Virus record (IMG/VR): IMGVR_UViG_3300031760_000015
Location: 1-43,640 of that record
DNA length: 43,640 nt
Strand: one strand, 5' to 3'
From: a virus
Taxonomy: Duplodnaviria; Heunggongvirae; Uroviricota; Caudoviricetes
The notes under the pieces are model-generated. The model was not told the DNA's origin, did no database searches, and saw only the letters and a list, made by a program, of their open reading frames with translations. How positions within the stretch are numbered: the first letter of the stretch is position 1; each line of letters opens with the position of its first letter. Positions 3,008 through 18,018 of the stretch are shown here, in pieces. The position numbers were made by a program, and so were the translations under genes.

Positions 3008-3077
3008 TTAAATTTAACTTGACTTCTTCTCTCTAAAATGATATAATTAATACATCAAAAGCAAGGAGGAATAAACC

Positions 3078-3263: not shown

Positions 3264-3287
3264 TCCCGCATTTCTTTTTAAGCATAT

Positions 3288-3319
3288 GTAAATTAGAATA
3301 TCCGTATTATCTAATTTTC
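3288..3319. repeat. Palindromic site S9
   Basis: GTAAATTAGA-ATATCCGTATTA-TCTAATTTTC. Confidence 0.9.
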
Positions 3320-3388
3320 AAACTTTTAACTTGACATATACTGATTTATAGATTATAATATATACAGAAATTGAGAGGAGGCAACCCC

Positions 3389-3604: not shown

Positions 3605-3628
3605 TCCTCCACTTTTTATTATAGCTAT

Positions 3629-3660
3629 GTAAATTAGACTTTCCGTTTAGTCTAATTTAC
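3629..3660. repeat. Palindromic site S10
   Basis: GTAAATTAGA-CTTTCCGTTTAG-TCTAATTTAC. Confidence 0.95.
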
Positions 3661-3740
3661 TCACATTTAACTTTATTATGCTTACTTCTTAATATTCAAA
3701 ATGGTATAATATATCCATCAAATGAAGGGGGTATAAACCT

Positions 3741-3965
3741 ATGAAGGCTATTTACGTCATCACTGAAAACAATGAAGTCATCACCGCCCGCGACACCATG
3801 AACAACGCCGTTGCTGCCGCAATGAACCGGATTGCTATTTGCGGCTATCTGTGTGAAGGGTTCGAATATGACGAATCCTTGACACTCATTGACTACCGCG
3901 ATACCAGCGCGCACGAAACGCGCACGATGCTCATTCAGGAAACGACCTTGCATGAAGGGGTTTAA
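3741..3965 (+). CDS. Hypothetical protein, paralog of 1591-1839
   Basis: Shared atypical promoter and protein motifs. Confidence 0.8.
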   Translation: MKAIYVITENNEVITARDTMNNAVAAAMNRIAICGYLCEGFEYDESLTLIDYRDTSAHETRTMLIQETTLHEGV

Positions 3966-3985
3966 CCCCTTCTTTTTAATTCTAT

Positions 3986-4017
3986 GTAAATTAGATAATC
4001 CGTATCTTCTAATTCAC
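3986..4017. repeat. Palindromic site S11
   Basis: GTAAATTAGA-TAATCCGTATCT-TCTAATTCAC. Confidence 0.9.
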
Positions 4018-4086
4018 ATACAATTAACTTGACAAAATATATCAATTCATGCTATAATAAATCATCAAATGAAGGGGGTTAATACC

Positions 4087-4305
4087 ATGAAGAAATACAG
4101 CATCACTACAAAGTTTGTTACCATGTACACCAAAGAAGAAGAAGTCAAAGTCGAATATACAAATGACTTTGAGGCCGCTTTAGGCGCGTACATCATTTAC
4201 ATTGAAAACCCTGAAGTTGTATTCTGCACTTTGGCACTTCTTAACGAAAATGACACAATTCGAGAAATTGTCGCCGCGTTTAATTCGCAGCATATAAGGG
4301 GTTAA
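4087..4305 (+). CDS. Hypothetical protein
   Basis: AAGGGGG RBS before ATG 4087. Confidence 0.8.
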   Translation: MKKYSITTKFVTMYTKEEEVKVEYTNDFEAALGAYIIYIENPEVVFCTLALLNENDTIREIVAAFNSQHIRG

Positions 4306-4327
4306 TCCCCTTATATGTTGACTATAT

Positions 4328-4359
4328 GTAAATTAGAGTATCCGGACACTCTAATATAC
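4328..4359. repeat. Palindromic site S12
   Basis: GTAAATTAGA-GTATCCGGACAC-TCTAATATAC. Confidence 0.9.
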
Positions 4360-4459
4360 AAAAACTTAATATAAAAAAACTATTGACAAATCAATTTTTT
4401 GTGGTATAATAAAATAAAAACGGTTCAACAACAACGACAACATGAGAGGAGATTTTACA

Positions 4460-4753
4460 ATGTTTTTTCAGATTCAGATTCGTCACGTTTTAGTCTATGG
4501 TTACATCTATGACAACGGCATGTTTGAGATTAACATGTGGGACTTTGACGCCGATGATTATTGGTTCAGGGACGGACGTAAAAAGACTGTTAAGGCCGCG
4601 TGGCGCATGATTTACCACATGGCCCGCGACATGGACAGGATTAACCACATCTTTGATGAAGATGGGGTTGAGGAATTGGAAGAGGCAATGGAACTGTTCT
4701 TTGACGAAGATTTAGAAATGTTAAATCTTGATGAAGATTGGGATTGGGAATAG
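4460..4753 (+). CDS. Acidic-tailed hypothetical protein
   Basis: GAGGAG RBS before ATG 4460; D/E-rich C-terminus. Confidence 0.8.
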   Translation: MFFQIQIRHVLVYGYIYDNGMFEINMWDFDADDYWFRDGRKKTVKAAWRMIYHMARDMDRINHIFDEDGVEELEEAMELFFDEDLEMLNLDEDWDWE

Positions 4754-4782
4754 GCCAACGGCCTATTCTTTTTTAAACTAAT

Positions 4783-4814
4783 GTAAATTAGACTATCCGG
4801 CTACTCTAATTTAC
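4783..4814. repeat. Palindromic site S13
   Basis: GTAAATTAGA-CTATCCGGCTAC-TCTAATTTAC. Confidence 0.95.
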
Positions 4815-5075
4815 GAACATTTAACTTGACAAATCTTGTAAAATTTGGTATAATTAACAATGGTGGAATATTATGAGAAAGGAGGCGATTGTTATGACTA
4901 TGTTAAGGAGTGATTGAGTTTTGGTTAAGACTATATTAAAATTAAGTAAAGTGGCCCGTGTATCGGGTCTGTTAGTGCTGCCTAATTTTAGCTAAACTTA
5001 ACCCATAATTAACTTGACTTACAAGCTGGAAGCTGGTATAATATATATAGAAAAAGAGAGGAGCTGGAGCTGGAT

Positions 5076-5261
5076 ATGAAGAAACTTACTACTGAACAAA
5101 CGGAAAAGCTGAAAGCTGCTATTCGCGCACTATATCAGCTGGAAGATGAGCTGTCAAGTGATTTTGAAGGTAATCGTCAAGATGCCTGGGATGTTCATTC
5201 TATCTTAAAAGTAGCAGACCATCTTACCGTATTGTATGAAAAATGGAAGGAGAATAAGTAA
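5076..5261 (+). CDS. Hypothetical protein
   Basis: Own promoter at 5014; GGAG RBS. Confidence 0.75.
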   Translation: MKKLTTEQTEKLKAAIRALYQLEDELSSDFEGNRQDAWDVHSILKVADHLTVLYEKWKENK

Positions 5262-5262
5262 T

Positions 5263-5457
5263 ATGTTCAAGCCTAATGCAGAACACATCGAAGAACTGAT
5301 GCGTGCAAAAGAGATTTGCGATTCTCTGATTGATGAAATCCATCAAGATGATGATTACCTTTTTCTAATGAATAGAGCAAGACTTAGTAGCGCCGCCGCA
5401 GCCATTGAGAATGTTCTTAATAGTTTTACTAATACCATTGAAGCACTCACACCATGA
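5263..5457 (+). CDS. Hypothetical protein
   Basis: AAGGAG RBS; coupled to the previous gene; terminator at the stop. Confidence 0.75.
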   Translation: MFKPNAEHIEELMRAKEICDSLIDEIHQDDDYLFLMNRARLSSAAAAIENVLNSFTNTIEALTP

Positions 5458-5472
5458 GTGCTTTACTTTTAT

Positions 5473-5504
5473 GTTAATTAAACCGCACGTACAATTTATA
5501 TAAC
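5473..5504. repeat. Palindromic site S14
   Basis: GTTAATTAAA-CCGCACGTACAA-TTTATATAAC. Confidence 0.8.
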
Positions 5505-5574
5505 AATCTTTTAACTTGACATTTTATTCTAAATGATATATAATATATACATCAAGTGAAGGGAGATACAAACT

Positions 5575-5946
5575 ATGCGCGAAGTTACTATGTATTATGC
5601 CTATGATGACAAGGAATTTGACAACTATGAAGCGTGCTTGGTTTATGAAAATAAAGGTTATGGACTAATGCGTAGCATAGAAAAGAAGTATTCTTTCTAT
5701 GATAAGAATATGAAGGAAATGATTCCTCCATATGAATCATCTAATGTTGAAGATTGGTTAACTTGGTTAGATGATGCTTATTCTTACTGCACTTACATTA
5801 GGAAGATGGGCAGTCTGACTGACGATGAAGCAGAAATCATTCGGGAGAATATTGGTGTTTGTATTTTCGAGGAAGATTTCAATTGTGCGGTTGGCCTATT
5901 TAGATATGATACTCGCACAATGGAATGGGTTAAAGTGGATGAATAA
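5575..5946 (+). CDS. Hypothetical protein
   Basis: Promoter, GGGAG RBS, terminator. Confidence 0.8.
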   Translation: MREVTMYYAYDDKEFDNYEACLVYENKGYGLMRSIEKKYSFYDKNMKEMIPPYESSNVEDWLTWLDDAYSYCTYIRKMGSLTDDEAEIIRENIGVCIFEEDFNCAVGLFRYDTRTMEWVKVDE

Positions 5947-5968
5947 TCCACTTTAATTTTAATTATAT

Positions 5969-6000
5969 GTAAATTAAATAATCCGTATATCCTAATTTAC
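5969..6000. repeat. Palindromic site S15
   Basis: GTAAATTAAA-TAATCCGTATAT-CCTAATTTAC. Confidence 0.9.
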
Positions 6001-6069
6001 AAACAATTAACTTGACTTCTTAAATTATATATGCTATACTGTATACATCAAATGAAGGGAGCATAGAAC

Positions 6070-6507
6070 ATGAAGATAGTTTGGGACATGGACGGCACGA
6101 TTGCCGATTTGTATGGTGTGGAGAATTGGCTTACTTACTTGCGTGCTTTTGACCCCACGCCTTATCTTGCGGCGAAACCTCTTGTTAATATGTCAAGATT
6201 GGCATATTGGCTAAACAGATTACAAGAAAAAGGGCACAAACTTGTTATTGTAAGTTGGTTAAGTAAAGAATCAAATCCAGATTATGACAAATTGGTTACT
6301 GATGCCAAAATTAAATGGCTCAACCAACATTTGCCAAGCGTCAAATGGGATGAAATTCATATTGTAGCCTATGGCCGCAATAAATGGGAAATAGCAAAAG
6401 ATGGAATTTTGTTTGATGATGATATGAGAAATCACGAAGCATGGAAAAATGGAAATAGCTATTTCCCCAATGATATATTCGATGTTCTTAAAAAGATGGC
6501 GGCTTGA
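6070..6507 (+). CDS. HAD-superfamily 5'(3')-deoxyribonucleotidase-like phosphatase
   Basis: N-terminal DMDGT (DxDxT) motif and C-terminal LFDDD motif. Confidence 0.8.
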   Translation: MKIVWDMDGTIADLYGVENWLTYLRAFDPTPYLAAKPLVNMSRLAYWLNRLQEKGHKLVIVSWLSKESNPDYDKLVTDAKIKWLNQHLPSVKWDEIHIVAYGRNKWEIAKDGILFDDDMRNHEAWKNGNSYFPNDIFDVLKKMAA

Positions 6508-6530
6508 CCGCCATCTTTTATAAATTATAT

Positions 6531-6562
6531 GTTAATTAAAACGCACGGATAATGTATTTAAC
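6531..6562. repeat. Palindromic site S16
   Basis: GTTAATTAAA-ACGCACGGATAA-TGTATTTAAC. Confidence 0.8.
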
Positions 6563-6630
6563 AAAAAATTTACTTGACTTTTTATAGAAATTATGTTATA
6601 ATAATTATAGAAAACGAAAGGAGAAAGCAA

Positions 6631-6699
6631 ATGTTTATTTGGTTAGTTTTTGCTATCGACATTCTGATTATTTCTGCAATTCTCGTAACAATCATTTAA
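6631..6699 (+). CDS. 22-aa hydrophobic membrane peptide (MFIWLVFAIDILIISAILVTII)
   Basis: Own promoter (6574) and AAGGAG RBS; below ORF-track cutoff. Confidence 0.6.
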   Translation: MFIWLVFAIDILIISAILVTII

Positions 6700-6776
6700 C
6701 TTGACTTTCTCGCCTCAACATGTTATAATGTATCTACAAAGTGAAGGAAAACACTAAACCAGAGAGGAGTTAATCT

Positions 6777-7238
6777 ATGGCTAACATGAGTAAGGCAGCC
6801 CTCGAAACCGCTATCCGCAATGACATTCTTTCCGCTATGACTGCTTTCCTGTCTGAACACTTTGAAGCCGATGTAATGGACGTTAGCGCAAGCGAACTGG
6901 CTATGCCTGTTGTCGATGCCGAAGGCAACGAAAAGTTCGCACTGATTAAGGTATCTATTCCGCGTGGTTCTCGCAATGGCGATGGCGGTTATGATGCCTA
7001 TGACGGTTACGCAGCCCATGATGAATGGGAACTTGTCAAGGCAGACAAAGCAGACAAAGAAGCAAAGCGCAAGGAAAAGGCAGAACGCGCAGAGAAGGAA
7101 AAAGAGCGCAAGCGCGCCGCAAAGAAAACTATTAAGAAACTGAATACCGAAGGGCTTCAGGCGATGATTCACGCGCCTGACCCCGAAGAAGAAAAAGATG
7201 ACGATAACCAATTCCTGCCCCAAGAAGTGACGGTTTAA
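6777..7238 (+). CDS. Hypothetical protein with K/A/E-rich tail (family with 8201-8515 and 12459-12797)
   Basis: Promoter, conserved leader, GAGGAG RBS. Confidence 0.85.
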   Translation: MANMSKAALETAIRNDILSAMTAFLSEHFEADVMDVSASELAMPVVDAEGNEKFALIKVSIPRGSRNGDGGYDAYDGYAAHDEWELVKADKADKEAKRKEKAERAEKEKERKRAAKKTIKKLNTEGLQAMIHAPDPEEEKDDDNQFLPQEVTV

Positions 7239-7261
7239 CCGTCACTTTATTTTATATCTAT

Positions 7262-7293
7262 GTTAATTATATTGTACGTTCAATCTATATTAC
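7262..7293. repeat. Palindromic site S17
   Basis: GTTAATTATA-TTGTACGTTCAA-TCTATATTAC. Confidence 0.8.
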
Positions 7294-7363
7294 AAACAAT
7301 TAACTTGACTTCTATGCGCGAATCATGTATAATTATATCAGAAAACGAAAGGAGAATTGCCAA

Positions 7364-7504
7364 ATGATTATTACTGTAACTATTGATACTGATGATATGA
7401 CCTTCTGCGCTTCTGATGAGAATGATGAAATATATGTAGATTATACCAAATGTGACCCCGAAGATATTACAATAAAAGAAATAATTAACGATTTCTTAAC
7501 TTGA
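7364..7504 (+). CDS. 46-aa acidic protein
   Basis: AAGGAG RBS; TGA stop overlaps the next -35 box. Confidence 0.65.
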   Translation: MIITVTIDTDDMTFCASDENDEIYVDYTKCDPEDITIKEIINDFLT

Positions 7505-7554
7505 CTTCTACTCTTCAATATGCTATAATAATTCCAGAAAGTGAGGGAAAGCAA

Positions 7555-7710
7555 ATGAAATACACAGTTGATATTTATTTTTCTTCTGGATATAATGGAA
7601 ATTGGCGAAATTGTGGTTATACCTTTCCAACTTATATTGACGCATATCTGTGGGTATGTCTCAATTATCCTAATCTTATTTCTAAAGATTATAGATTTAG
7701 AGAGGTTTAA
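7555..7710 (+). CDS. Hypothetical protein
   Basis: GAGGG RBS before ATG 7555. Confidence 0.7.
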   Translation: MKYTVDIYFSSGYNGNWRNCGYTFPTYIDAYLWVCLNYPNLISKDYRFREV

Positions 7711-7713
7711 AAA

Positions 7714-7935
7714 ATGAGTAAAAAGAATAATTCTACTTATGAAGTTATCCGCAAAATACGCGGTGATTGGGGTAGTATCAATCCAGTAACCAAAGTAATT
7801 CCAAATAAGAAAAAGAATTATCAGTTTGATGATGATTATTATAGTATGGACGATTGTAATTATGATTTAGAGCATCTTAGAGCAGACCATTATGAAGAAG
7901 ATGATTATTATTTTGAAGATTGGAGCGATTATTAA
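7714..7935 (+). CDS. Hypothetical protein with D/Y-rich tail
   Basis: GAGG RBS; operonic. Confidence 0.7.
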   Translation: MSKKNNSTYEVIRKIRGDWGSINPVTKVIPNKKKNYQFDDDYYSMDDCNYDLEHLRADHYEEDDYYFEDWSDY

Positions 7936-8126
7936 TGATTGTAGCAGGACTTATCCGCGCAGCCCAAACCAAAGTTATTATTAACAGTGTTATAATTTGG
8001 AATCCAAATACCAGCCGCGCTTTATATGTTGGTTCAGTAAGTGAAATCCCCGAAAAACTTAAATATAAAGAAGTAAATTCCTATCGTTATAGCAAAGAAA
8101 AAGAAAGAATAATAATAAGGATTTAA
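7935..8126 (+). CDS. Hypothetical protein
   Basis: TAATG overlap with upstream stop; terminator at the stop. Confidence 0.7.
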   Translation: MIVAGLIRAAQTKVIINSVIIWNPNTSRALYVGSVSEIPEKLKYKEVNSYRYSKEKERIIIRI

Positions 8127-8148
8127 TCCTTATTATTTTTAATTATAT

Positions 8149-8180
8149 GTAAAATACATTATACGTTCACTCTAATTTAC
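8149..8180. repeat. Palindromic site S18 (terminator on both sides; left end of inversion 1)
   Basis: GTAAAATACA-TTATACGTTCAC-TCTAATTTAC; no adjacent promoter. Confidence 0.9.
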
Positions 8181-8188
8181 ACTAAATT

Positions 8189-8213
8189 AAAAAAGAAGGC
8201 TTACGCCTTCTTT
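8189..8213 (-). terminator. Intrinsic terminator of the inverted gene, facing site S18
   Basis: Minus strand AAGAAGGC-GTAA-GCCTTCTTTTTT. Confidence 0.8.
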
Positions 8214-8515
8214 TCCTTCGCCGCAATCTTAGCAGCCTTTTCAGCTTCCTTGGCAGCCTTATTATCAGCCTTAATCTGACGTTCGGCTTCCCATTCCTGC
8301 GCAGCCTCATAGGGGTCAAATGCCTTGGATACCTTGGTATCCTTGTAAGCCTTGGACTTCACAGAAACTTCTGTCCAAACTTCCTGACCGTCCACAGTCT
8401 GGAGAATGGCGAAAGAGCCATCCGCAAACTTTACGGCATCATTTTCCTGAAGTGACGGCATGATAGCGGCAATGGTCATCTGACGAGCGGTAGCCTTAAT
8501 CTCATTAGCGTTCAT
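8201..8515 (-). CDS. Inverted cassette gene, K/A-rich tail family
   Basis: Minus-strand promoter TTGACA 8597-8592/TATAAT, leader, AAAGGG RBS, terminator 8189-8213. Confidence 0.85.
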   Translation of the reverse strand: MNANEIKATARQMTIAAIMPSLQENDAVKFADGSFAILQTVDGQEVWTEVSVKSKAYKDTKVSKAFDPYEAAQEWEAERQIKADNKAAKEAEKAAKIAAKEKKA

Positions 8516-8619
8516 GTATTTCCCTTTCTGGTTTTTAGGACTTGTTCCTTGTCCTCTTGACAGTTATTATTATAGCAGAATTTCATTTCCTTGTCAATAC
8601 TTTTCTATGTTAATTTCAT

Positions 8620-8651
8620 TTTAATTAGAAGTCCCGTAATTTCTAATTTTT
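8620..8651. repeat. Palindromic site S19 (promoter on both sides; right end of inversion 1)
   Basis: TTTAATTAGA-AGTCCCGTAATT-TCTAATTTTT; divergent TTGACA boxes 22 bp away on each side. Confidence 0.8.
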
Positions 8652-8743
8652 CAAATCTTAACTATCCTAATACTTGACATTTCATTCTAATTCTGCTATA
8701 ATAATTACAGTTGAGGGAGAGGAAAGGAACTCCCAAAACACAT

Positions 8744-8818
8744 GAGGGTGTAGCCAAGTGGTATGGCAATGGACTTTTAATCCATGTATCGCGGGTTCGA
8801 TTCCCGCCACCCTCACCA
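8744..8818 (+). tRNA. trnK: tRNA-Lys(UUU)
   Basis: Acceptor GAGGGTG/CACCCTC-A-CCA; anticodon arm ATGGA-CTTTTAA-TCCAT; T-loop GGTTCGATTCC; own promoter 8674-8702. Confidence 0.95.
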
Positions 8819-8871
8819 ACTTCACGAAATCTTAACTTGACAAAGTTGGGGAATCGTGATATAATGAAAAT

Positions 8872-8942
8872 GTTGAAGGGCGAGGGTGGAAACCACCGCA
8901 AAGCACTGCTACGCAAAAGCCACAATTCCCGAACCCTTTAAC
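8872..8942 (+). ncRNA. Candidate ~70-nt small RNA
   Basis: Promoter TTGACA 8837/TATAAT 8860; closing stem GTTGAAGGG/CCCTTTAAC; internal GGTGG-AAA-CCACC hairpin; no ORF. Confidence 0.55.
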
Positions 8943-9033
8943 AAACTCTTAACTTGACATTATAGCCAATCGGTGCTATAATAAATACATCAAAGGGAAC
9001 GACACCCTACAAACGAGAAAGGAATTAACCACT

Positions 9034-9381
9034 ATGAAGAAGTCTACTCTTGAGATGATGAAGAACTATCTGAACGGCGACAACACTGTTGACCTGTCCG
9101 TTCTGCGCGACGAGGTTAATGCCGAGTGGGAACGCACTACCTCAAAGTCCCGCGCTAATAAGGAACTGTATGATGCGGCGCATGATGCTCTGATGGCTTA
9201 CGAAGCATGGAACAAGCCCATGACAAGCAAGGAACTGTGGGAAGTTGTGGGCGCGGATATGCCCGAAGGCTTCACTGAAAGCAAGATGCGCTACGGTTGC
9301 CTTAACTACTGGACTGATGAGGTTCAGAAGAACGACAACGGCAAGAACCCTGCTACCTACGAGCGCAAGCCGCAGGATTAA
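9034..9381 (+). CDS. Hypothetical protein (possible winged-helix-like fold)
   Basis: Promoter, AAAGGA RBS, terminator 9388-9412; fold is a guess from the MTSKELWE..YCL pattern. Confidence 0.8.
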   Translation: MKKSTLEMMKNYLNGDNTVDLSVLRDEVNAEWERTTSKSRANKELYDAAHDALMAYEAWNKPMTSKELWEVVGADMPEGFTESKMRYGCLNYWTDEVQKNDNGKNPATYERKPQD

Positions 9382-9423
9382 AATAAGAAAAGCACCCACA
9401 GGGTGCTTTTCTTTTACGTTTAT

Positions 9424-9455
9424 GTAAATTAAATTGCACGTACATTCTATATAAC
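9424..9455. repeat. Palindromic site S20
   Basis: GTAAATTAAA-TTGCACGTACAT-TCTATATAAC. Confidence 0.85.
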
Positions 9456-9527
9456 ATAGTTTTAACTTGACTTCTCAAACATAGTATGCTATAATAAATA
9501 CATCAAATGAAGGGAGATTAAATCAAT

Positions 9528-9821
9528 ATGAATAATGTATACTCTAAAGTTTTTAGTTGCCTTCCCGAACTTAGCGAAATTGAGCTTGAAGCTCTTGCAG
9601 AAGCATGTCAAGAAAGAGCAGAAGGGAAAAGAAAAGCACGCCGTGAAGTATTGCGGCAAGAATTAATGGAGAATCTTCAAAAAGTCATTGGGGATATTCT
9701 TCATAATGGTTTTAATCTCGCTATTAAAAATACTGGATGCAATCCTGAATACGATGATTATGTTGAAGTTTTTTTTGAACCCGGAGATATTTATTCAATA
9801 GTAATGGTAGATAATAAGTAG
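9528..9821 (+). CDS. Hypothetical protein
   Basis: Promoter, GGGAG RBS, terminator. Confidence 0.8.
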   Translation: MNNVYSKVFSCLPELSEIELEALAEACQERAEGKRKARREVLRQELMENLQKVIGDILHNGFNLAIKNTGCNPEYDDYVEVFFEPGDIYSIVMVDNK

Positions 9822-9848
9822 CGGCAACGCTACTTTTTTTAATTTCAA

Positions 9849-9880
9849 GTAAATTAAATTGCACGTACACTCTAATTCAT
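9849..9880. repeat. Palindromic site S21
   Basis: GTAAATTAAA-TTGCACGTACAC-TCTAATTCAT. Confidence 0.9.
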
Positions 9881-9981
9881 CAACACTTAACATAAAAAAG
9901 TATTGACAAATAGATATAGAGGGTGTATAATATATCCAGAAAGTGAAGGAAAACACTTGACAAACCAGAAAGGGATTGAAC

Positions 9982-11022
9982 ATGCAGTTTAAGAAAGAGC
10001 GTAATTTCATCGTGGCGTATGACGGCGTTATCAAGTTGGGCGCGTGGGACATTTCCAACGGTTCTTTCATTGGCAAGAGCGGCAAGCCTGTTAAGAATGT
10101 TCCTTCTTGCTTTACCTATCGTAATTTGCCTTCATGGCGTAGTGGCGCGAATGACCTTGCCTATGCTATTTATTGGTATCGGACAAACCTTTCCGATAAT
10201 TATACGGAAGTTATGGGCGCACACTTTGAACAGCTTTTGAGTTTGGGGCTTTTCCCGAACAGCACCAACAGTCTTTACGATAAACCCAATCTTAACAAAA
10301 AGATTGTGGAGTATCTCAAAGAAGAAAATCAGAGTTATTATGATTCTATTAAGGTAGCGCGTTACCTTGCCTTAATCCAGCATGAACAGTATATTAACAC
10401 TTTGCCTGATTGGGCAAAAGAAGTTTTTAGTAGCCTTTTGAGATCTAATATTCCCATTGATTATATTAAGACTGCGTTAAATCGTGTTATCCATGAACAT
10501 GTTGACGCTTTTATTAAAGATAGCTATTACATTTCTGGAAAAATCTTTGAAATGTTGAAAGATTATTATAATATTTCCATGAAGTTGTTTAACAAAGTGG
10601 AAATAGAAAAAAATTTCCTGACTAAATACGCAATTTTGAAATATCTTGCGGAAGAATACAAGAATAAGCACTATAATGAAGAATTGGCAAAGAATAACGA
10701 TAAATCATGGCTTTACTACGAAAACGAAACCTTTATTGTAAAGCCGATTTTGACCAAAGAGGATTTCCATATAGAGGGCGAAGCGCAGCGAAATTGCGTT
10801 GAAAGAATGTATATGGAAAAAGTATACAAAGGCGAAACTCACGTTGTAACTATTCGCCGCAAGTCTGACCCTAATAAATCTTATATAACTTGTGAAGTTA
10901 GCAACGATGGTAGGATTTGGCAGTATTTGGCACGTTGTAACGAAACGCCCAAAGAACAGGACGCAAGGAACTTCAAAGTAGAATATACACAGCATCTTAA
11001 CAGAAACTACAAAAAGGATTAA
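9982..11022 (+). CDS. PcfJ-like domain protein
   Basis: C-terminal EGEAQRNCVE..Y.....IRRK....YITCEV...G.I.QY....N..P pattern typical of PcfJ. Confidence 0.75.
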   Translation: MQFKKERNFIVAYDGVIKLGAWDISNGSFIGKSGKPVKNVPSCFTYRNLPSWRSGANDLAYAIYWYRTNLSDNYTEVMGAHFEQLLSLGLFPNSTNSLYDKPNLNKKIVEYLKEENQSYYDSIKVARYLALIQHEQYINTLPDWAKEVFSSLLRSNIPIDYIKTALNRVIHEHVDAFIKDSYYISGKIFEMLKDYYNISMKLFNKVEIEKNFLTKYAILKYLAEEYKNKHYNEELAKNNDKSWLYYENETFIVKPILTKEDFHIEGEAQRNCVERMYMEKVYKGETHVVTIRRKSDPNKSYITCEVSNDGRIWQYLARCNETPKEQDARNFKVEYTQHLNRNYKKD

Positions 11023-11054
11023 CCCGAAAGGGTTAATCTCTTTTTTAAGGCTAT

Positions 11055-11086
11055 GTAAATTAAACAGTCCGGACACTCTAATTTAC
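11055..11086. repeat. Palindromic site S22
   Basis: GTAAATTAAA-CAGTCCGGACAC-TCTAATTTAC. Confidence 0.92.
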
Positions 11087-11172
11087 GCACATTTAACTTG
11101 CGTTTCTTCCCTGACTGTGCTATAATATATCCAGAGTTGAAGGAAAACAACACAAACCAGAAAGGCTTTATT

Positions 11173-12186
11173 ATGGCGAATAAGACCAAGCGTTATCTGA
11201 TGTTGGATTGTGAAACTGCTACCTTGCCATTTGCGGATGAAATCGCGGGTGACAATCCCGAGCGCAAAAAGCGTATAGCCATTGCCAAGCCCTTGATTTA
11301 TGATATTGGTTGGACTATTACCAATCGCAAGGGCGACATTCTGGAAAGCAAGCAATTTTTGATTGCGGAAACTTTCGCCGTTCCTGCTGTATTCAATACT
11401 GCGTATTACGCAGAAAAGCGCCCCATTTATCTTGAAATGCTCAAGAAAAATGAAACCAGCATAAAGCCGTGGAATGAAGTTATGGATGTGTTAATTGCCG
11501 ATATGGGCATTGTCGATGGTGTCGGCGCGTTTAATTCAATGTTTGATTTTAAGAAAGCTATTCCTTTTACTGAACTTTACATTCAGGAATTGTATAGCCC
11601 CACTTATTATCAATGGGAACAGTTACAGCGCAGAAGCGCGGCGCGCATTGCCGATGGAGAACGCAATCAACCGAACCCCGATTTTGAAGCCGATATTTTC
11701 CGCTTCCGTGGAAAAAAATATTCACTTTTCGATATGTGGGGACTTGCCACGACTTACCTTTTGAATAATACTACTTATAAGAATAAGTGTTTGGAACATT
11801 CAATGCTTACTAATTCAGGAACATTCTTTAAAACAAGTGCAGAAAGCACTTTCCGTTATCTCTGTGATAAATATGATTTTATGGAAAGCCATACCGCGCT
11901 TGATGATGCTATCATAGAAAGTTTCATACTTTCCAAGGTTGCTCAAAAGCATAGTATAACAATGGGAATTAAATTCTTCCCTTTCCGTGATTTGGGCGCT
12001 ACTGATGAATTTTGTATGAGAAGGAAAAAAGCAAACAAGCGCGAATGTGAAACTGTGTATTGTGCTATGGCAGATTACATAAACGCAAAATTAGATGAAG
12101 CGGATGAATTATCTAATTATGCGGTAGGATTAGTCCGCAGGATGCGCAGACTTGCCGAGTATGCGGGATTTGAATGTAATTATTAA
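11173..12186 (+). CDS. DEDDh (DnaQ-like) 3'-5' exonuclease
   Basis: ExoI LDCETA, ExoII FNSMFD, ExoIII HTALDD. Confidence 0.85.
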   Translation: MANKTKRYLMLDCETATLPFADEIAGDNPERKKRIAIAKPLIYDIGWTITNRKGDILESKQFLIAETFAVPAVFNTAYYAEKRPIYLEMLKKNETSIKPWNEVMDVLIADMGIVDGVGAFNSMFDFKKAIPFTELYIQELYSPTYYQWEQLQRRSAARIADGERNQPNPDFEADIFRFRGKKYSLFDMWGLATTYLLNNTTYKNKCLEHSMLTNSGTFFKTSAESTFRYLCDKYDFMESHTALDDAIIESFILSKVAQKHSITMGIKFFPFRDLGATDEFCMRRKKANKRECETVYCAMADYINAKLDEADELSNYAVGLVRRMRRLAEYAGFECNY

Positions 12187-12223
12187 GTTAAGAGCCACGA
12201 GGCTCTTTTCTTATTAAGCAAAT

Positions 12224-12255
12224 GTAAATTAAAGTGTACGTACACTCTAATTTAC
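12224..12255. repeat. Palindromic site S23
   Basis: GTAAATTAAA-GTGTACGTACAC-TCTAATTTAC (spacer is itself a perfect palindrome). Confidence 0.95.
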
Positions 12256-12301
12256 TTTCTTTTAACTTGACATTTGTGGGATTTTCTGATATACTATATT
12301 T

Positions 12302-12366
12302 GTTGAAAGGGAGAGGGCAACACTCCTGCTCCATAAGAACCAGTCAAGAGCCAACTCCCTTTTAAC
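12302..12366 (+). ncRNA. Candidate ~65-nt small RNA
   Basis: Promoter TTGACA 12267/TATACT 12290; 12-bp closing stem GTTGAAAGGGAG/CTCCCTTTTAAC; no ORF. Confidence 0.55.
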
Positions 12367-12458
12367 AAACTCTTAACTTGACATTTAGCACATAACGTGC
12401 TATAATGAATACATCAAGTGAAGGAAAACACTTAAAAACCAGAAAGGATTTCACTACT

Positions 12459-12797
12459 ATGGCGAAGATTTCTAAGGCTGTCGTTGATTCCAACATCCGT
12501 ACCGCTATCTTCAACACCCTGCACATTGCCGACATTGAAGGTATCCACAAGATTAATGATCGTCAGTATGGTTGCCTTGTGACCGATTCCAACGGCGTTG
12601 AGCGTTACGCGCGTATCGGCGTAATCGTTGCCGAAGAACGCGAGGACATGACCGCCGCCGAACTCATGGCCGCCGAAATTGCGGACTATGAGGACAAGCA
12701 GGCGAAGAAGGCCGCGAAGGCCGCCGAGCGTGCCGAAAAGGCCGCAAAGGACAAGGCCAAGCGTGAAGCCGCGAAAAAGGAAAAAGAAGGGGAGTAA
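12459..12797 (+). CDS. Hypothetical protein, K/A-rich tail family
   Basis: AAAGGA RBS before ATG 12459. Confidence 0.85.
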   Translation: MAKISKAVVDSNIRTAIFNTLHIADIEGIHKINDRQYGCLVTDSNGVERYARIGVIVAEEREDMTAAELMAAEIADYEDKQAKKAAKAAERAEKAAKDKAKREAAKKEKEGE

Positions 12798-12819
12798 CCC
12801 CTTCTTTTTTTAAGTTAAT

Positions 12820-12851
12820 GTAAATTAAAGTGTACGGACATTCTAATTTAC
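12820..12851. repeat. Palindromic site S24
   Basis: GTAAATTAAA-GTGTACGGACAT-TCTAATTTAC. Confidence 0.92.
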
Positions 12852-12941
12852 CAACTCTTAATTTGACAAATAGCCAAGCCCATGCTATAATATATACATC
12901 AAGTGAGGGAAAACACTTAAAAACCAGAGAGGACAATATTT

Positions 12942-13109
12942 ATGTATCAGATTCATTTTCTTCTTCTCAATGGTGAACATGCTATTATTGCAAATTGGGT
13001 AAACTCGAACAGGTTTCCTACTAAAGAAGATGCAATGAGATTTGCGCAGAATACTGCAAAAAGTTTCAATGGAAGTTGCTACAATATCTTTTATCGAGTT
13101 GTAGGATAA
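12942..13109 (+). CDS. 55-aa hypothetical protein (MYQIHFLLLNGEHA...)
   Basis: Promoter 12863, conserved leader, GAGAGG RBS; below ORF-track cutoff. Confidence 0.7.
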   Translation: MYQIHFLLLNGEHAIIANWVNSNRFPTKEDAMRFAQNTAKSFNGSCYNIFYRVVG

Positions 13110-13205
13110 CAAAACCTTAACTTGACAAACTCCACTTCATCTGATATAATATAATCAATCAAGTGAAGGAAAACACTAACAAACCCAAGAGAGAAAGGAA
13201 TCAAT

Positions 13206-13616
13206 ATGAATATGAACTCTAACATCAAGTGCGGCACTTCCATCAATGGCGGCGTGGTTCTGACTGATATGCCCATCAAGGCTCTGGTTGCCCTGCGTGA
13301 TGCGGTAGACGATGCTATCCGCAATTCCCGTAAGGATGATTCTGACCGCCTTCTGACCGACATTATTTCCGCGATTGATGCGGCAAATGATGAGGGCTAT
13401 ATGGTTAATCTGAATGGCAAGCCCATTTGTCCTGACCTTCTGACCGTAGATTATGATGAAGATAATGACTATTGGGATGACGATGAAGACGAGGACGAAG
13501 ATGATGATGATTGGGATGACGATTGGGATGATGATGACGAGGATGAGGACAATGAGGATAGCCCATGTGATGGTTGCGAAGATGATTGTTTCTATTGTCC
13601 CCATTGTGATTGTTAA
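13206..13616 (+). CDS. Extremely acidic protein with C-terminal Cys cluster
   Basis: Poly-D/E tract followed by CDGCEDDCFYCPHCDC. Confidence 0.85.
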   Translation: MNMNSNIKCGTSINGGVVLTDMPIKALVALRDAVDDAIRNSRKDDSDRLLTDIISAIDAANDEGYMVNLNGKPICPDLLTVDYDEDNDYWDDDEDEDEDDDDWDDDWDDDDEDEDNEDSPCDGCEDDCFYCPHCDC

Positions 13617-13651
13617 GAAAAGGGCGTAAGCCCTTTTCTTTTTAAGCATAT

Positions 13652-13683
13652 GTAAATTAGATAGCACGTTCAATTTAATTTAC
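13652..13683. repeat. Palindromic site S25
   Basis: GTAAATTAGA-TAGCACGTTCAA-TTTAATTTAC. Confidence 0.92.
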
Positions 13684-13754
13684 TTACAATTAACTTGACT
13701 TCCATTCCGTTCTATGCTATAATATATTCAAGAAAACGAAAGGGGATTCAAATT

Positions 13755-13907
13755 ATGAATTATCTTGATGCCTTGAATTATGTCTTGTCAATGTCTGGAG
13801 AATTGGAAGAGTTAGGCATGACTAAAGAATGTCATACTCAACTTTGCCTTCTTAGAGACAAAGTTTATAAAGAAATGCAGCAAGAGAAAAGAAAGGAGCA
13901 TAACTAA
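13755..13907 (+). CDS. Hypothetical protein
   Basis: AAAGGGG RBS before ATG 13755. Confidence 0.7.
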   Translation: MNYLDALNYVLSMSGELEELGMTKECHTQLCLLRDKVYKEMQQEKRKEHN

Positions 13908-13909
13908 TT

Positions 13910-14098
13910 ATGGATTACATTTGCCCTCATTGCGACACTGAACTTGAACTGACCGAAGTCGAAACCTATCAGGATTATAGTGGTTCGCGCATACTAACCG
14001 AGTATAATACTTGGTATTGCCCTACTTGCGGCCGCACGTATCAGAATGAGACTAACTATGTCTATGTTGATGAAACTGAATTGAAGGAGATTAAGTAA
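13910..14098 (+). CDS. Zinc-ribbon protein
   Basis: CPHC...CPTC. Confidence 0.8.
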   Translation: MDYICPHCDTELELTEVETYQDYSGSRILTEYNTWYCPTCGRTYQNETNYVYVDETELKEIK

Positions 14099-14129
14099 GG
14101 CGCGAAAGCGCCTTTTATTTTATACATAT

Positions 14130-14161
14130 GTAAATTATAGTGTACGTACAATTTAATTCAT
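14130..14161. repeat. Palindromic site S26
   Basis: GTAAATTATA-GTGTACGTACAA-TTTAATTCAT. Confidence 0.85.
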
Positions 14162-14233
14162 ATACTTTTAACTTGACTTTTCACGCAGAATATATTATAA
14201 TAAATACATCAAATGAAAGGGGAATAAAACATT

Positions 14234-14608
14234 ATGTTGAAGATGAATTATTCAGATCTCAAAGAAAAGAACTATCGCCAGCTTATCAAAGAGTGCGAGC
14301 GTCGCGGAATTGATACTTCTGATTATAGAGGTTGTATGCCTCCAAATGATCTTATTGGAAAGATTATCGCGCATGATGCCTACTATGAAGGGCGCGATGA
14401 TGCTCTTAATGGGCGTCCCTCCAAGGTAGAAATGAACCGCAAAAATGAGCGCACTCGCTATCGTTTTCGGGAATGTGATGGAACTGAGCATTATGTTATG
14501 CTTACGCGTGAGCAAGAGCGTTTTATGCGTTGGAATTACGATAATGCTATTGATTATGATAATATGGATATAGATGTTATTGAAGACATTAATTGGGAAA
14601 CTCCATAA
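14234..14608 (+). CDS. Hypothetical protein (N-terminus resembles a Rho-N/SAP-like helical motif)
   Basis: LKEKNYRQLIKECERRGI pattern; promoter, RBS and terminator. Confidence 0.75.
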   Translation: MLKMNYSDLKEKNYRQLIKECERRGIDTSDYRGCMPPNDLIGKIIAHDAYYEGRDDALNGRPSKVEMNRKNERTRYRFRECDGTEHYVMLTREQERFMRWNYDNAIDYDNMDIDVIEDINWETP

Positions 14609-14630
14609 AGAGTTTCCTTTTTAATTTCAA

Positions 14631-14662
14631 GTTAATTAAACTGTCCGTGCAGTCTAATTCAT
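14631..14662. repeat. Palindromic site S27
   Basis: GTTAATTAAA-CTGTCCGTGCAG-TCTAATTCAT. Confidence 0.85.
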
Positions 14663-14734
14663 ATACATTTAACTTGACTTTTCTTCCTATCTTGTGTATA
14701 CTATATACATCAAATGAAAGAGAGGACAGTTCAC

Positions 14735-15451
14735 ATGGTTGATAAGCGTATTCATTACTATTTGGTGTTGGATGTAGAGACAGCTAACGGTTTGGATGAC
14801 CCATTGGTTTATGATATTGGTGGCGCGATAACCGACAAACAAGGTAGGATTTACGAAACATTTTCTTTCGTAATTCGAGACATTTTCATCTATGAGCGTT
14901 TTCTCATGGAAACGGCATACTATGCTAACAAGGTTCCCGATTATATTCAAGACTTGGAAAATGATAATCGTATTCTCATTGATTTCCACAATGCGCGAAA
15001 ATATATTCTTGCGCTAATGGAAAAATACAACATAACAGATGTTGCCGCTTATAACGCACATTTTGACCGCAACGCATTGAATACAACGCAGCGTTGGTTA
15101 ACCAAATCTAAATATAGATACTTTTTCCCCTATGGCACAAACTTCATCTGTATTTGGAATATGGCTTGCCAAACCCTATGCCAACGCAAAACATATAAAG
15201 AATTTTGTGAAAAGAATAATTTCACAAGCAATCGCAAGGGAGAACCAAACGCAAAGAATTACAGCACGAGCGCAGAAACAGTTTACAGATACTTAATACT
15301 AAACGCAAATTATGAGGAAGAACATAAAGGTTTAGAAGATGTTAAGATTGAAACATATATTATGAAAAGATGCTTTTCCTCAAAAAAGAAAATGCCATAT
15401 GGTAAAGGAATTAAAAGAAATTGTTGGATGTTGGTTAAGAGAACGGTTTAA
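14735..15451 (+). CDS. Second DEDDh 3'-5' exonuclease
   Basis: LDVETA, YNAHFD, HKGLED motifs; homologous to 11173-12186. Confidence 0.85.
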   Translation: MVDKRIHYYLVLDVETANGLDDPLVYDIGGAITDKQGRIYETFSFVIRDIFIYERFLMETAYYANKVPDYIQDLENDNRILIDFHNARKYILALMEKYNITDVAAYNAHFDRNALNTTQRWLTKSKYRYFFPYGTNFICIWNMACQTLCQRKTYKEFCEKNNFTSNRKGEPNAKNYSTSAETVYRYLILNANYEEEHKGLEDVKIETYIMKRCFSSKKKMPYGKGIKRNCWMLVKRTV

Positions 15452-15472
15452 CCGTTCTTTTTTTGATTTTAT

Positions 15473-15504
15473 GTTAAATAGATTGTACGTACCATTTAAT
15501 TTAC
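15473..15504. repeat. Palindromic site S28 (terminator on both sides; left end of inversion 2)
   Basis: GTTAAATAGA-TTGTACGTACCA-TTTAATTTAC; no adjacent promoter. Confidence 0.88.
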
Positions 15505-15537
15505 ACATAATTAAAAAAAATAGCGGTTTTGCCGCTA

Positions 15538-15714
15538 TTACATATCCTCCAATTCATGAATTTTAGTTATGGTTCCGTAATAACTGCCATCATCATAATT
15601 AAACCAAAATTGAAAATCTTCGGTATCAATTATCCAAAATCCATCTTCTGCTTTATAGGTGTGATGAATATTCAAGCGGTCAAGAAGATACAGAGCCATT
15701 GCAAAATTAGACAT
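15538..15714 (-). CDS. 58-aa hypothetical protein in inversion 2 (MSNFAMALYLLDRL...)
   Basis: Minus-strand AAAGGA RBS; terminator 15513-15540 faces S28; below ORF-track cutoff. Confidence 0.7.
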   Translation of the reverse strand: MSNFAMALYLLDRLNIHHTYKAEDGFWIIDTEDFQFWFNYDDGSYYGTITKIHELEDM

Positions 15715-15732
15715 TTGATTTCGTTCCTTTCA

Positions 15733-16005
15733 TTATTTAATATTAAGCATTTCAAAAACTTTTTTTATTCGTCGCTTATTTAGTATATCTTCATAGGCAT
15801 TTTGTTTTTCAATCAATTCAATTATTTTTTCATCTCCCTGTTCATCGCATAAAGCCGCGATAGTTAAACGAATATAAGGAAATTCTTCATCACCAGTATT
15901 AAAAATCAATTCACGATTATTAAAATTGGCAGAGATTAATTCTTCATTAAGCCAATCTTTTACAAATTTTTCACGAACTTTATTTTGCTTTTCCATCAAT
16001 GTCAT
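15733..16005 (-). CDS. Hypothetical protein in inversion 2
   Basis: Minus-strand promoter next to S29, ATCAAATGAAGGGAG leader. Confidence 0.8.
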   Translation of the reverse strand: MTLMEKQNKVREKFVKDWLNEELISANFNNRELIFNTGDEEFPYIRLTIAALCDEQGDEKIIELIEKQNAYEDILNKRRIKKVFEMLNIK

Positions 16006-16075
16006 ATGCTTGCGCTCCCTTCATTTGATACATCAATTATAGCAGATAGTATGTAATATGTCAAGTTAAAGTATA

Positions 16076-16107
16076 GTAAAATAGACTGTACGCGCAATTT
16101 AATTAAC
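16076..16107. repeat. Palindromic site S29 (inside inversion 2; canonical context on the minus strand)
   Basis: GTAAAATAGA-CTGTACGCGCAA-TTTAATTAAC; minus-strand -35 box 11 bp away. Confidence 0.88.
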
Positions 16108-16138
16108 ATAAAATAAAAATGGCACTTTAAGTGCCATA

Positions 16139-16354
16139 TTATATTACCTCCACAATCTTAACGCTATCTTCATCATAACCGATAATATCATAAAGTTCTT
16201 CCGCAGAGAATGAAACTTTACAATTATTACAGGTACAAAAAACTATCTTGCTATAACAATTATAGTTATAGTTCCAGCCAAGTGCAGAATCCGCGACAAT
16301 CTCAAAACTTCCAGCAGTCCCGCATTTAGGACACTTAATCGTCTTGTAAGGCAT
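16139..16354 (-). CDS. Zinc-ribbon protein in inversion 2
   Basis: CPKC...CNNC; minus-strand promoter next to S30; terminator 16120-16137. Confidence 0.8.
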   Translation of the reverse strand: MPYKTIKCPKCGTAGSFEIVADSALGWNYNYNCYSKIVFCTCNNCKVSFSAEELYDIIGYDEDSVKIVEVI

Positions 16355-16424
16355 ATTGTAAATCTCCCTTCATTTGATGATATAAGTATAGCAGAAAATG
16401 GGAAAGAAGTCAAGTTAAACCTAC

Positions 16425-16456
16425 GTAAATTAGACTAAACGGCCATTCTAATTTAC
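16425..16456. repeat. Palindromic site S30 (right end of inversion 2 and last site of the array)
   Basis: GTAAATTAGA-CTAAACGGCCAT-TCTAATTTAC; minus-strand promoter to the left, plus-strand promoter further right. Confidence 0.95.
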
Positions 16457-16776
16457 AAACCCATAACAATACTTCACTCTGCTAAAGTGCTACCATACTA
16501 CCATACTAAAACCTACCTCTTGACTTAGATATAAAATTATGTTATAATAGTATTAGAAAAAGGGGGAGGGAAGTTGTGTGTATGAGCTGGATTTTCGCGC
16601 GTATAATTTCCCTATAAGGAGCTGGAAATAAGCTGGAAGAGGAGCTGGAAATTTTTTCACAACTAACAAGAAAAAAGCTGGAATTGTCAAATATTTGACA
16701 AAATAATTTAAAATATTTTAAAAATAAATAAAATACTTTAATTTTGAAAGAAAAAATTCAAAAAAGGAGTAAAAAA

Positions 16777-18018
16777 ATGAGAGAAGGATTACATTTATCC
16801 GAAGCACTTAATTTAGAGTACCCGCGTTACGAACGAGGTAGATTAAATTTAATTGTCGCGCAAACTGGTCAAGGCAAAACTACCGCCGCAATAAATACTA
16901 TACCAAAGCAATTAGGCGTCGCGCCGCAGCGATGTCTTATTTTAATTGATACTACAATGGGTGAAGAAGAGAAAATAGCCCTTGATGAATGTCAAATGTG
17001 GGGCGAAAAGCTGGATAAACCCTATATATTAAATTATCAAAAATTCGGCGCAATGGTTAAACGTGGAGAGCTAGTAGCTGAAATGTTTGACTATATATGC
17101 TGTGATGAAATTCATAATTTAATTAAGTATGTAAGAATAGATGAAGCTAATATATGGAAGCGCAACCCAGAAAGCTCACGAGAAGTTATTTGCCTTATAC
17201 TCTCGCAAGAATCATTTTCCTACATAGCCATAGACACTTTACTCCATTGGGCTGAGCTGAAAGGAGTATGGTGGTTTGGCTTAACTGCAACCGCAGATAA
17301 CCTAGAAAAATGGACACGTTTAAAATCATATATAAATGAAATTCAAATTCAAGAACAATTAATAGCCTATGAAGTATTCCAGAAATATGAATACTCAGAT
17401 GTTCACGTCTTACTTCGCGCAAATCCAGAAGTTAAACGTTTAATATTTGTTCCTAAAATAGAACAAGGTGAACAGTTTGCGCGCGAAATTCAAGAAAATA
17501 CAGGACGCAAAGTTGTTTGTTTATGGTCTAAACGAGCTTTAAAACCAATGACAAATAATCAGCTAGACATTGTCAATCACTTGCAACATAACCATAAGTA
17601 TCCAGATGATATAGATGATATAATACTTACAGAAGCTTATGCTACAGGCTGGAATTTAATTGATGACAATGTGCAAATTGTAATTGTGCATAGTGGAAAT
17701 AAGGATATACAAATTCAATTTCCTGGAAGGAAACGTGGAGATTGGCAAGTACAATATAATTATAATAGTCAATTAGCTGCTAATGAAAAACGTTTAAATA
17801 GGAAACAAGCTGCAAGAGCTGATATATCAAACACTCAATGGATTATACCAGATAATTATTTAAATCGTAAATTAGGGAAAGAAGATAAAGAACAATTAAT
17901 TCAAGAAATTGGTTATCCTAAAAAATGGACTTCTTTTAAAAAAGATATTTCTAAAAATTATAATATCGAACAAGCTGGAACTGGTGCTTATTATGGACAT
18001 ATAATTTCTAAAAGGTAG
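16777..18018 (+). CDS. SF2 (DExH) helicase-like protein, possible origin-binding/replication protein
   Basis: Walker A AQTGQGKT, Walker B DEIH, motif III TAT; AAGGAG RBS before ATG 16777. Confidence 0.8.
   Translation: MREGLHLSEALNLEYPRYERGRLNLIVAQTGQGKTTAAINTIPKQLGVAPQRCLILIDTTMGEEEKIALDECQMWGEKLDKPYILNYQKFGAMVKRGELVAEMFDYICCDEIHNLIKYVRIDEANIWKRNPESSREVICLILSQESFSYIAIDTLLHWAELKGVWWFGLTATADNLEKWTRLKSYINEIQIQEQLIAYEVFQKYEYSDVHVLLRANPEVKRLIFVPKIEQGEQFAREIQENTGRKVVCLWSKRALKPMTNNQLDIVNHLQHNHKYPDDIDDIILTEAYATGWNLIDDNVQIVIVHSGNKDIQIQFPGRKRGDWQVQYNYNSQLAANEKRLNRKQAARADISNTQWIIPDNYLNRKLGKEDKEQLIQEIGYPKKWTSFKKDISKNYNIEQAGTGAYYGHIISKR

Follow-up and report, generated by a model that had tools for sequence, protein, structure and literature searches.

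In T4-type phages, promoter-early stem-loop (PeSL) cassettes combine a stem-loop, an AT-rich stretch, a sigma-70-like promoter, and a Shine-Dalgarno sequence (Arbiol et al. 2010, PMC2839356; Comeau et al. 2014, PMC4122927). They undergo indels, swaps, and mini-circle formation by homologous recombination, and the mini-circles have been detected by inverse polymerase chain reaction (PMC2839356, PMC4122927). The words 'inversion' and 'palindrom' do not occur in the 2010 PeSL paper (PMC2839356). This cassette is the closest described system to the locus analyzed here, an array of small genes (bases 1–16456) in a 43,640-nucleotide (nt) stretch of phage DNA, to be referred to as the window. The right-hand end of this array is a reversed block of two leftward units (15473–16456). 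Copies of a 32-bp imperfect palindrome are located at the unit boundaries, and three of them, S28, S29, and S30, belong to the block, which an earlier note on this DNA had described as an inversion between S28 and S30. Since this 'inversion' is conserved architecture, it is better judged as part of the whole array than as an inversion event in its own right. The explanation that we favor, and regard as reasonably probable, is a PeSL-like cassette array with a symmetric boundary site, the putative target of a protein, where rare rearrangements are produced by general recombination.

In both PeSL cassettes and the array, composite modules with a terminator stem-loop, AT-rich DNA, a sigma-70-like promoter, and a Shine-Dalgarno sequence are repeated in a hyperplastic region of small non-core genes. 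Relatives of both differ by insertion, deletion, and replacement of open reading frames (ORFs), with breakpoints in the modules. In contrast to the PeSL cassettes, the modules here have a discrete 32-bp palindrome that separates terminator and promoter, with a fixed distance of 11 or 22 nt to the −35 hexamer. Moreover, exactly one copy is found at each boundary, convergent and divergent ones included, and the units are present in both orientations. The T4 PeSL model covers gain, loss, and swapping in one orientation. To this the family adds a symmetric boundary element, with one site per boundary whatever the orientation and with half-sites that travel with the neighboring unit.

Integrons, with the IntI tyrosine recombinase, a neighboring attI and Pc, and the attC sites, are likewise arrays of small cassettes with variable content and order, bounded by imperfect palindromes. 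In comparison, no integrase was found here (no PF00589 match in the record and the relatives searched), and whereas integron cassettes are mostly promoterless, a consensus promoter and a terminator are present in every unit of the array. An attC folds as a single-strand hairpin, but the site here does not behave as one, its inner pairs covarying weakly; both orientations are used; and the array is carried by a large phage of lytic type. The Hin/Gin/Cin serine invertases, the Rci shufflons, and the tyrosine-recombinase invertons also have a promoter-bearing segment that is reversed between short symmetric sites, and shufflons have several sites in series. Unlike those systems, the array is associated with no recombinase gene that could be found in the record and the relatives searched, and no heterogeneity was seen among contigs. 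In addition, the orientation of each family is conserved among relatives, and the site is phased to the promoters.

The L5 repressor 'stoperators' are located in intergenic spaces, and the phi29 p4 sites lie upstream of divergent promoters. The L5 stoperators are asymmetric and orientation-dependent. As in the array, many copies of a short site are positioned between units or upstream of the −35 hexamer, and in these two phages early transcription is controlled by a small protein that reads them. The predicted binding site in the array is symmetric, in contrast. We know of no described link of the L5 stoperators or phi29 p4 sites to rearrangement breakpoints.

The window and related loci

The window covers the first 43.6 kb of an IMG/VR phage record of 107.6 kb (IMGVR_UViG_3300031760_000015), which originates from cattle-gut metagenomes and is estimated to be 61% complete. 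A search of sequencing runs found the probable source run and 23 others that have a small part of its words in common with it. Three complete relatives have sizes of 181–184 kb, with direct terminal repeats in one of them. The array's phage family is one of roughly 180-kb cattle-gut (rumen-type) phages. The style of the host's promoters and ribosome-binding sites looks Gram-positive.

A phage database search with positions 14000–18000 gave one trivial 72-nt match and nothing else. Five related loci were fetched through the 245-amino-acid (aa) protein encoded to the left of the block, and 46 through the helicase encoded to its right, which is 74–97% identical in those loci to that of the window. 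After removal of duplicates, approximately 38 loci were left, 19 of which have the 32-nt type of site. Orientations were tallied for the 87 gene families seen in at least 4 loci, and sites were scored with a position-weight matrix (PWM).

The intergenic module and its palindromic site

The array is built of PeSL-like regulatory modules, each consisting of a terminator, the 32-bp site, and a sigma-70-type promoter. The site is an imperfect palindrome with a 10+12+10 layout, in which two AT-rich 10-nt arms (consensus GTAAATTAGA and its complement) flank 12 nt. The central CG is invariant. Thirty copies are located in bases 1–16456, compared to 0.05 expected per shuffled window with the PWM, and none is found in the remainder of the 107.6-kb record. 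Complete relatives carry 33 and 39 copies, all inside one region of 17–21 kb.

For 26 of the 30 window sites the arrangement on the plus strand is a rho-independent terminator, a gap of about 10 nt, the site, a promoter, a ribosome-binding site, and a small ORF. The promoter is near-consensus (TTGACA-17-TATAAT), and its −35 hexamer is 11 nt, sometimes 22 nt, from the site. The 11-nt spacer contains the motif TTAAC. At shared divergent junctions the site is used on both sides, with spacings of 11/11 or 22/22 nt. The intergenic modules form repeat families of 20–28 copies, roughly 100 nt each, and are just 60–80% alike.

The complementarity of the inner site positions is 3.75 of 7 pairs, compared to 3.12 after shuffling, an excess that mostly reflects differences between lineages. 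A hairpin or cruciform was rejected as the main feature of the site. Since the inner positions covary weakly, the site looks like a protein target with two half-sites. Its variants differ between lineages and are uniform within one array.

A different boundary site is found in the relatives L012/L014, L018, L031–L035, L040, L045, and L053, whose helicases are 74–95% identical to that of the window. It is shorter, about 29–30 nt, and has a GC-rich center and the form GTTAAG..(G)CCGG(C)..CTTAAC, and a composite element of approximately 62 nt adjoins the helicase leader. The site type is a property of the whole array and changes independently of the flanking core gene. The presence of gene families as a function of site type gave weak leads (F14 and F7 with the 32-nt type, F13 with the other).

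Nine strong consensus promoters in the array have no upstream site (846–874, 940–968, 5014–5042, 6701–6729, 7501–7529, 8837–8865, 8954–8982, 12378–12406, and 13122–13150). Most of them are not preceded by a terminator, and several may drive short RNAs instead of ORFs.

One site per boundary

The sites follow a simple grammar. Every site in the approximately 38 loci has, on each side, either an inward-pointing terminator or an outward-pointing promoter at 11 or 22 nt. A rightward terminator is followed by a rightward promoter at 111 sites, and a leftward promoter by a leftward terminator at 46. Two terminators face each other at 48 sites, and two promoters diverge at 15. The labels of neighboring sites are consistent with each other in 201 transitions and inconsistent in 4, which are due to a spurious terminator call or to gaps where a diverged type of site was missed.

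Strand switches in relatives are associated with the sites, as the earlier note had expected. In the 19 loci, exactly one site is present between 67 of the 73 opposite-strand neighbors and 135 of the 226 same-strand neighbors (Fisher p 6e-8), a contrast that is partly trivial because same-strand pairs include genes within one operon. The 6 exceptions involve doubtful ORFs of 42–60 aa. In the window alone, the coincidence that the earlier note had proposed to weigh against chance is not significant, 4/5 for opposite-strand and 23/29 for same-strand boundaries, because sites occupy most unit boundaries anyway. The informative observation is at the convergent junctions, which serve no promoter and still have exactly one good site. 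The divergent junctions have one shared site, not two. The relatives provide 48 convergent and 15 divergent junctions with a single site.

Conservation of the leftward arm

The earlier note had counted the block as a second independent inversion event in this genome, which is not borne out by the relatives. A leftward-transcribed arm, corresponding to bases 15505–16424 at the right-hand end of the hyperplastic early-gene array of the window, abuts the helicase leader in each of the 19 relatives that have the 32-nt type of site, and contains 1–5 units. All loci with any of the block's three gene families have it on the minus strand, even at other array positions (F21, 8/8 loci; F37, 6/6; F26, 7/7). 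The plus strand carries the 245-aa gene in 21/21 loci. Overall, 84 of the 87 families keep a single orientation. A protein identical to the 71-aa product of F21 is encoded by 13 contigs from JGI, ENA, Logan, and NCBI, and no flipped form is present among these assembled contigs where context exists.

The arm's presence in all close relatives with the 32-nt site type, the single orientation of the families, and the lack of a flipped contig indicate that the block is inherited architecture. Its content has been turned over by orientation-preserving, unit-by-unit exchange of cassettes, and arm units differ one by one among genomes with 93–97% identical helicases. In a comparison between the window and L011, S29, the promoter, the 5′ untranslated region (UTR), and the terminator hairpin are kept while the ORFs between them differ. 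The position of the unit of family F36 differs among L025, L030, and the window. L005, the closest viral contig, shares the S28 and S29 junctions of the window, and the order 71-90-58 facing 238-124 (protein lengths in aa) recurs in two further contigs, one from Logan and one of 185 kb from ENA. Breakpoints lie in the motifs in the comparisons of ORF indels and swaps between the window and L005, L011, and L012, between L025 and L015 or L030, and between L018 and L043.

The three families seen in both orientations were considered as crossover markers and found unusable, as the arrays concerned differ in site type and ORF replacement into an existing leftward slot suffices to account for them with no inversion. 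The 123-aa gene at 5575–5946 (plus strand) is leftward in L033/L058 (92–93% aa identity) and in L031/L057 (72–73%). The DNA homology between the window and L033 spans only the −10 hexamer to the terminator for this gene.

Probable exchange at or near the sites

Two sets of sequence comparisons, the retention of half-sites with their own flank and the empty and filled states of the arm, make it likely that exchange occurs in the sites or right next to them. S28 illustrates the first. In 7 genomes, its unusual left half remains joined to the 245-aa gene's terminator, and the switch is at the site center. Its right half follows the right-hand neighbor, which is either a leftward terminator or, in two different versions, a rightward promoter. 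More generally, the linkage of the inner half-sites to their own flank is about twice that to the other half, 8 nt away.

Twenty-four clean three-way comparisons, not all of them independent, allowed breakpoints to be mapped. The breakpoint interval overlaps the central 12 nt of the site in 12 of the 24. These 12 nt make up 21% of the analyzed span and are its least conserved part. Seven of the remaining breakpoints are between the site and the −35 hexamer, and five are in the left arm or flank. Between L005 and the window, homology stops inside the left arm of S30, and the helicase to its right differs in L005. Many breakpoints are off the sites, in the spacer to the −35 hexamer, in the −10 hexamer or the 5′ UTR, and in the terminators. 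Cassettes common to arrays of different site type, those of the three families seen in both orientations included, show homology only in the stretch that starts at the −35 or −10 hexamer and ends at the terminator, as is typical of PeSLs.

The relatives with the other type of site show both empty and filled states of the arm. It is missing from seven loci, where the last rightward gene and its terminator are followed by one boundary element and the helicase leader. In five loci, one or two leftward units are located between a site that has retained the terminator-side half and an element that has retained the leader-side part. The leftward arm of L025 contains a rightward unit (F36), flanked by one divergent and one convergent site. 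This unit is missing at the corresponding position of L015 and is one position further left in L030.

Profile searches for serine (PF00239) and tyrosine (PF00589) recombinases found no match at an expectation value (E) of 0.1 or below in the record, in three 100%-complete relatives, and in two partial ones. The same profiles matched 13 and 14 of 14 control genomes.

Structure of the reversed block

The last rightward unit ends with the rho-independent terminator of the 245-aa gene (15437–15461, plus strand), formed by an 11-bp stem and a T run. S28 (15473–15504, PWM score 34.3) follows without a promoter. The terminator of leftward unit 2 is on its other side (15519–15539, minus strand), so S28 is located between two convergent terminators, in agreement with the earlier note. 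A matching hairpin closes other ORFs in L011/L013 and L025. Unit 2 contains two ORFs of unknown function, 58 aa of family F26 (15538–15714, minus strand; 93% identical in L005) and 90 aa of family F37 (15733–16005, minus strand; 91% identical in L012). Its sigma-70-type promoter (16036–16064, minus strand) has the form TTGACA-17-TATAAT with a TG, matching 12/12 hexamer positions.

S29 (16076–16107, PWM score 32.4) is the internal site of the arm. It has the canonical minus-strand context that had been assigned to it, with the −35 hexamer of this promoter exactly 11 nt to the left and the terminator of leftward unit 1 at the right (16119–16137, minus strand). Unit 1 encodes the 71-aa protein of F21 (16139–16354, minus strand), which has four cysteines and is probably a zinc ribbon, as suggested by a sub-threshold match to Zn_ribbon_recom (E 0.0036). 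Apart from this match, the 58-, 90-, and 71-aa ORFs belong to no Pfam or PHROG family. Each of the three has a ribosome-binding site. The promoter of unit 1 (16385–16413, minus strand; TTGACT-17-TATACT) also has its −35 hexamer exactly 11 nt from the site, here to the left of S30, as the earlier note had observed.

S30 (16425–16456, PWM score 37.0), which is identical in L011/L013, forms the divergent junction with the helicase leader. No canonical promoter is present at 11 or 22 nt to its right. A 'decayed promoter' at this place was not relied on, as the −35 position matches just 2–3 of 6 bases. The rightward promoter of the leader (16520–16548, plus strand; TTGACT-17-TATAAT) is 63 nt from S30, not 11 or 22, and is conserved in relatives. 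The helicase gene (16777–18018, plus strand; ResIII/DEAD-like, Pfam PF04851, E 7.8e-07) marks the right-hand end of the array.

Both ends of the block are palindromes of one family, S28 and S30, and thus provide the inverted sites expected of inversion systems. The prediction that flipping the block at 15488/15489 and 16440/16441 would restore a uniform array holds in silico. After re-inversion of 15489–16440, both inner junctions have the order terminator, site, promoter, and the quality of the sites is kept (scores of S28/S30, 34.3/37.0 before and 33.7/37.6 after). A reversed stretch with both ends in palindromic sites is thus present. A flip of the two units as one block is not supported, since arm units vary one by one among relatives. 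Inverted insertion of cassettes would leave the same end state as inversion.

Possible mechanism and alternative explanations

The site is most likely the target of a symmetric dimeric protein, predicted to act on early transcription or to insulate the units. Symmetric-protein binding is suggested by the lineage-specific, array-uniform variants, the helical phasing to the −35 hexamer, and the two-sided use at divergent junctions. The palindrome is the sole sequence that two modules have in common in inverted orientation, and as a result orientation-changing events, whether inversions or inverted insertions of cassettes, would be expected to resolve within it. General phage or host recombination probably carries out these apparently rare events with no dedicated invertase, perhaps aided by a protein-bound or fragile site center. 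Two ordinary crossovers, at its terminator-site and site-promoter sides, could also bring a leftward unit into a rightward context, with no inverted exchange. This route would explain the conserved orientation.

Several points weigh against this explanation. A role in transcription or insulation is suggested by spacing and distribution alone, and the binder is only putative. Promoter activity does not depend on the site, as about 9 strong promoters in the array are without one. The sites at convergent junctions match the consensus equally well, which a pure promoter-operator role does not predict. Moreover, breakpoints are in excess in the central 12 nt, the least conserved part, and the CG there is invariant, a combination that a cut at the center would explain better than a simple homology-driven crossover.

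The site could instead be purely a symmetric regulatory or insulating element with no role in recombination. The arm would then be an ancestral divergent unit, and the single site at each strand switch would reflect function, not history. The strict spacing of 11 or 22 nt to −35 on either side, shared divergent junctions included, is in its favor, as is the conservation across the family of the arm and of the minus orientation of a 104-aa gene (see below). Homogeneous sites within arrays and different ones between lineages are also expected if the site co-evolves with a binding protein. However, this does not account for the 48 convergent junctions with a good site and no promoter, nor for half-sites that segregate with their own flanks and a linkage that falls across the site center. 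There are also 7 relatives without the arm in which its two bounding half-sites flank a single junction. Finally, if the rightward unit in the leftward arm of L025 was inserted by homology, the crossover must lie inside the palindrome. We consider a purely regulatory site unlikely on this evidence.

A dedicated site-specific system, similar to integrons, shufflons, or invertases, could alternatively use the palindrome for crossover. It would cut at the central CG and excise, insert, or invert cassettes between any two sites, with 15489–16440 as one product. A palindromic central dinucleotide would permit both deletion and inversion, a property of serine integrases, and the site combines an invariant CG amid variable positions with conserved outer arms and the 10+12+10 layout. 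Such a system is also consistent with exactly one site at every junction type, with half-site chimeras joined at the site center, with half of the mapped breakpoints being in the central 12 nt, and with the empty and filled arm states in relatives. Against it, a symmetric site should randomize orientation, yet nearly all families keep one, and the 13 contigs with the identical 71-aa protein include no flipped variant. The PF00239 and PF00589 profiles, which matched the controls, are unmatched in the record and the three complete relatives. In addition, many breakpoints are outside the sites, and the fixed 11/22-nt phasing to −35 points to a role in transcription. The same orientation tally, contigs, and recombinase searches contradict the suggestion in the earlier note that any pair of sites can recombine, taken as an active process. 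A dedicated system appears quite improbable. The palindrome could also be the crossover site of an undescribed recombination activity, neither serine nor tyrosine type, encoded by an early gene or by the host and cutting at the central CG. We regard this as a distinctly improbable alternative. If true, a large lytic phage would possess an integron-like system that inserts, removes, and flips self-expressed cassettes.

The reversed block could in principle be an assembly artefact, since the modules are repeats of roughly 100 nt and the record is a metagenome assembly. The modules are only 60–80% alike, however, and the order and orientation recur in independent assemblies from other samples and pipelines (L005/L059, the ENA 185-kb contig, and the Logan contig). 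The junction grammar is also identical in the approximately 38 loci. An artefact can be given almost no weight.

Arrays of this kind are where large phages keep the accessory genes that evolve fastest, many of which probably serve host takeover or counter-defence. The family is a tractable natural system with hundreds of junctions in public rumen metagenomes, in which palindromes can be studied as recombination joints, transcription insulators, or both.

Other features of the locus

The 104-aa protein (8201–8515, minus strand), located in what the earlier note called 'inversion 1', is on the minus strand in 17/17 loci, including arrays with the other site type. It has a lysine/alanine-rich C-terminal helix and is 69–93% identical to the window copy in an alignment of 15 sequences. 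It was considered as the binder of the site and set aside, since its occurrence with the other site type as well means that it does not track site specificity. A search of the PDB by Foldseek with its fold model (predicted local distance difference test score 72) found nothing at E ≤ 0.001, the best hit being HU (E 0.54, template-modeling score 0.23–0.30). A profile search against the PDB found nothing relevant.

The 245-aa protein (14714–15451) and a 337-aa paralogue (11098–12186) are 26% identical to each other. Both are DEDD/RNase T-type exonuclease-like by their language-model neighbors (0.95–0.98), which is a lead only. The 337-aa family is confined to arrays with the 32-nt site, 12/17 loci compared to 0/7. 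The 136-aa ORF at 13206–13616 has repeats of 9–18 nt at 13445–13555, rich in D, E, and W codons, which give it a highly acidic low-complexity tail.

On the 3′ side of the array, the window encodes the ResIII-type helicase, an RNA ligase, a polynucleotide-kinase-like protein, Thg1, PnuC, and a 2402-aa ORF. Just to the right of S30, at 16480–16515, are short tandem units, TACCATAC and GTAAAGTG-TACCAT, whose copy number varies among the window, L013, L015, and L030. Between the rightward promoter and the start of the helicase, the leader (16570–16700) contains five or six copies of AGCTGGAA, with GCTGGA variants as well. These leader repeats are conserved in L011, L012/L014, and L040, and could be iterons or a regulator array.

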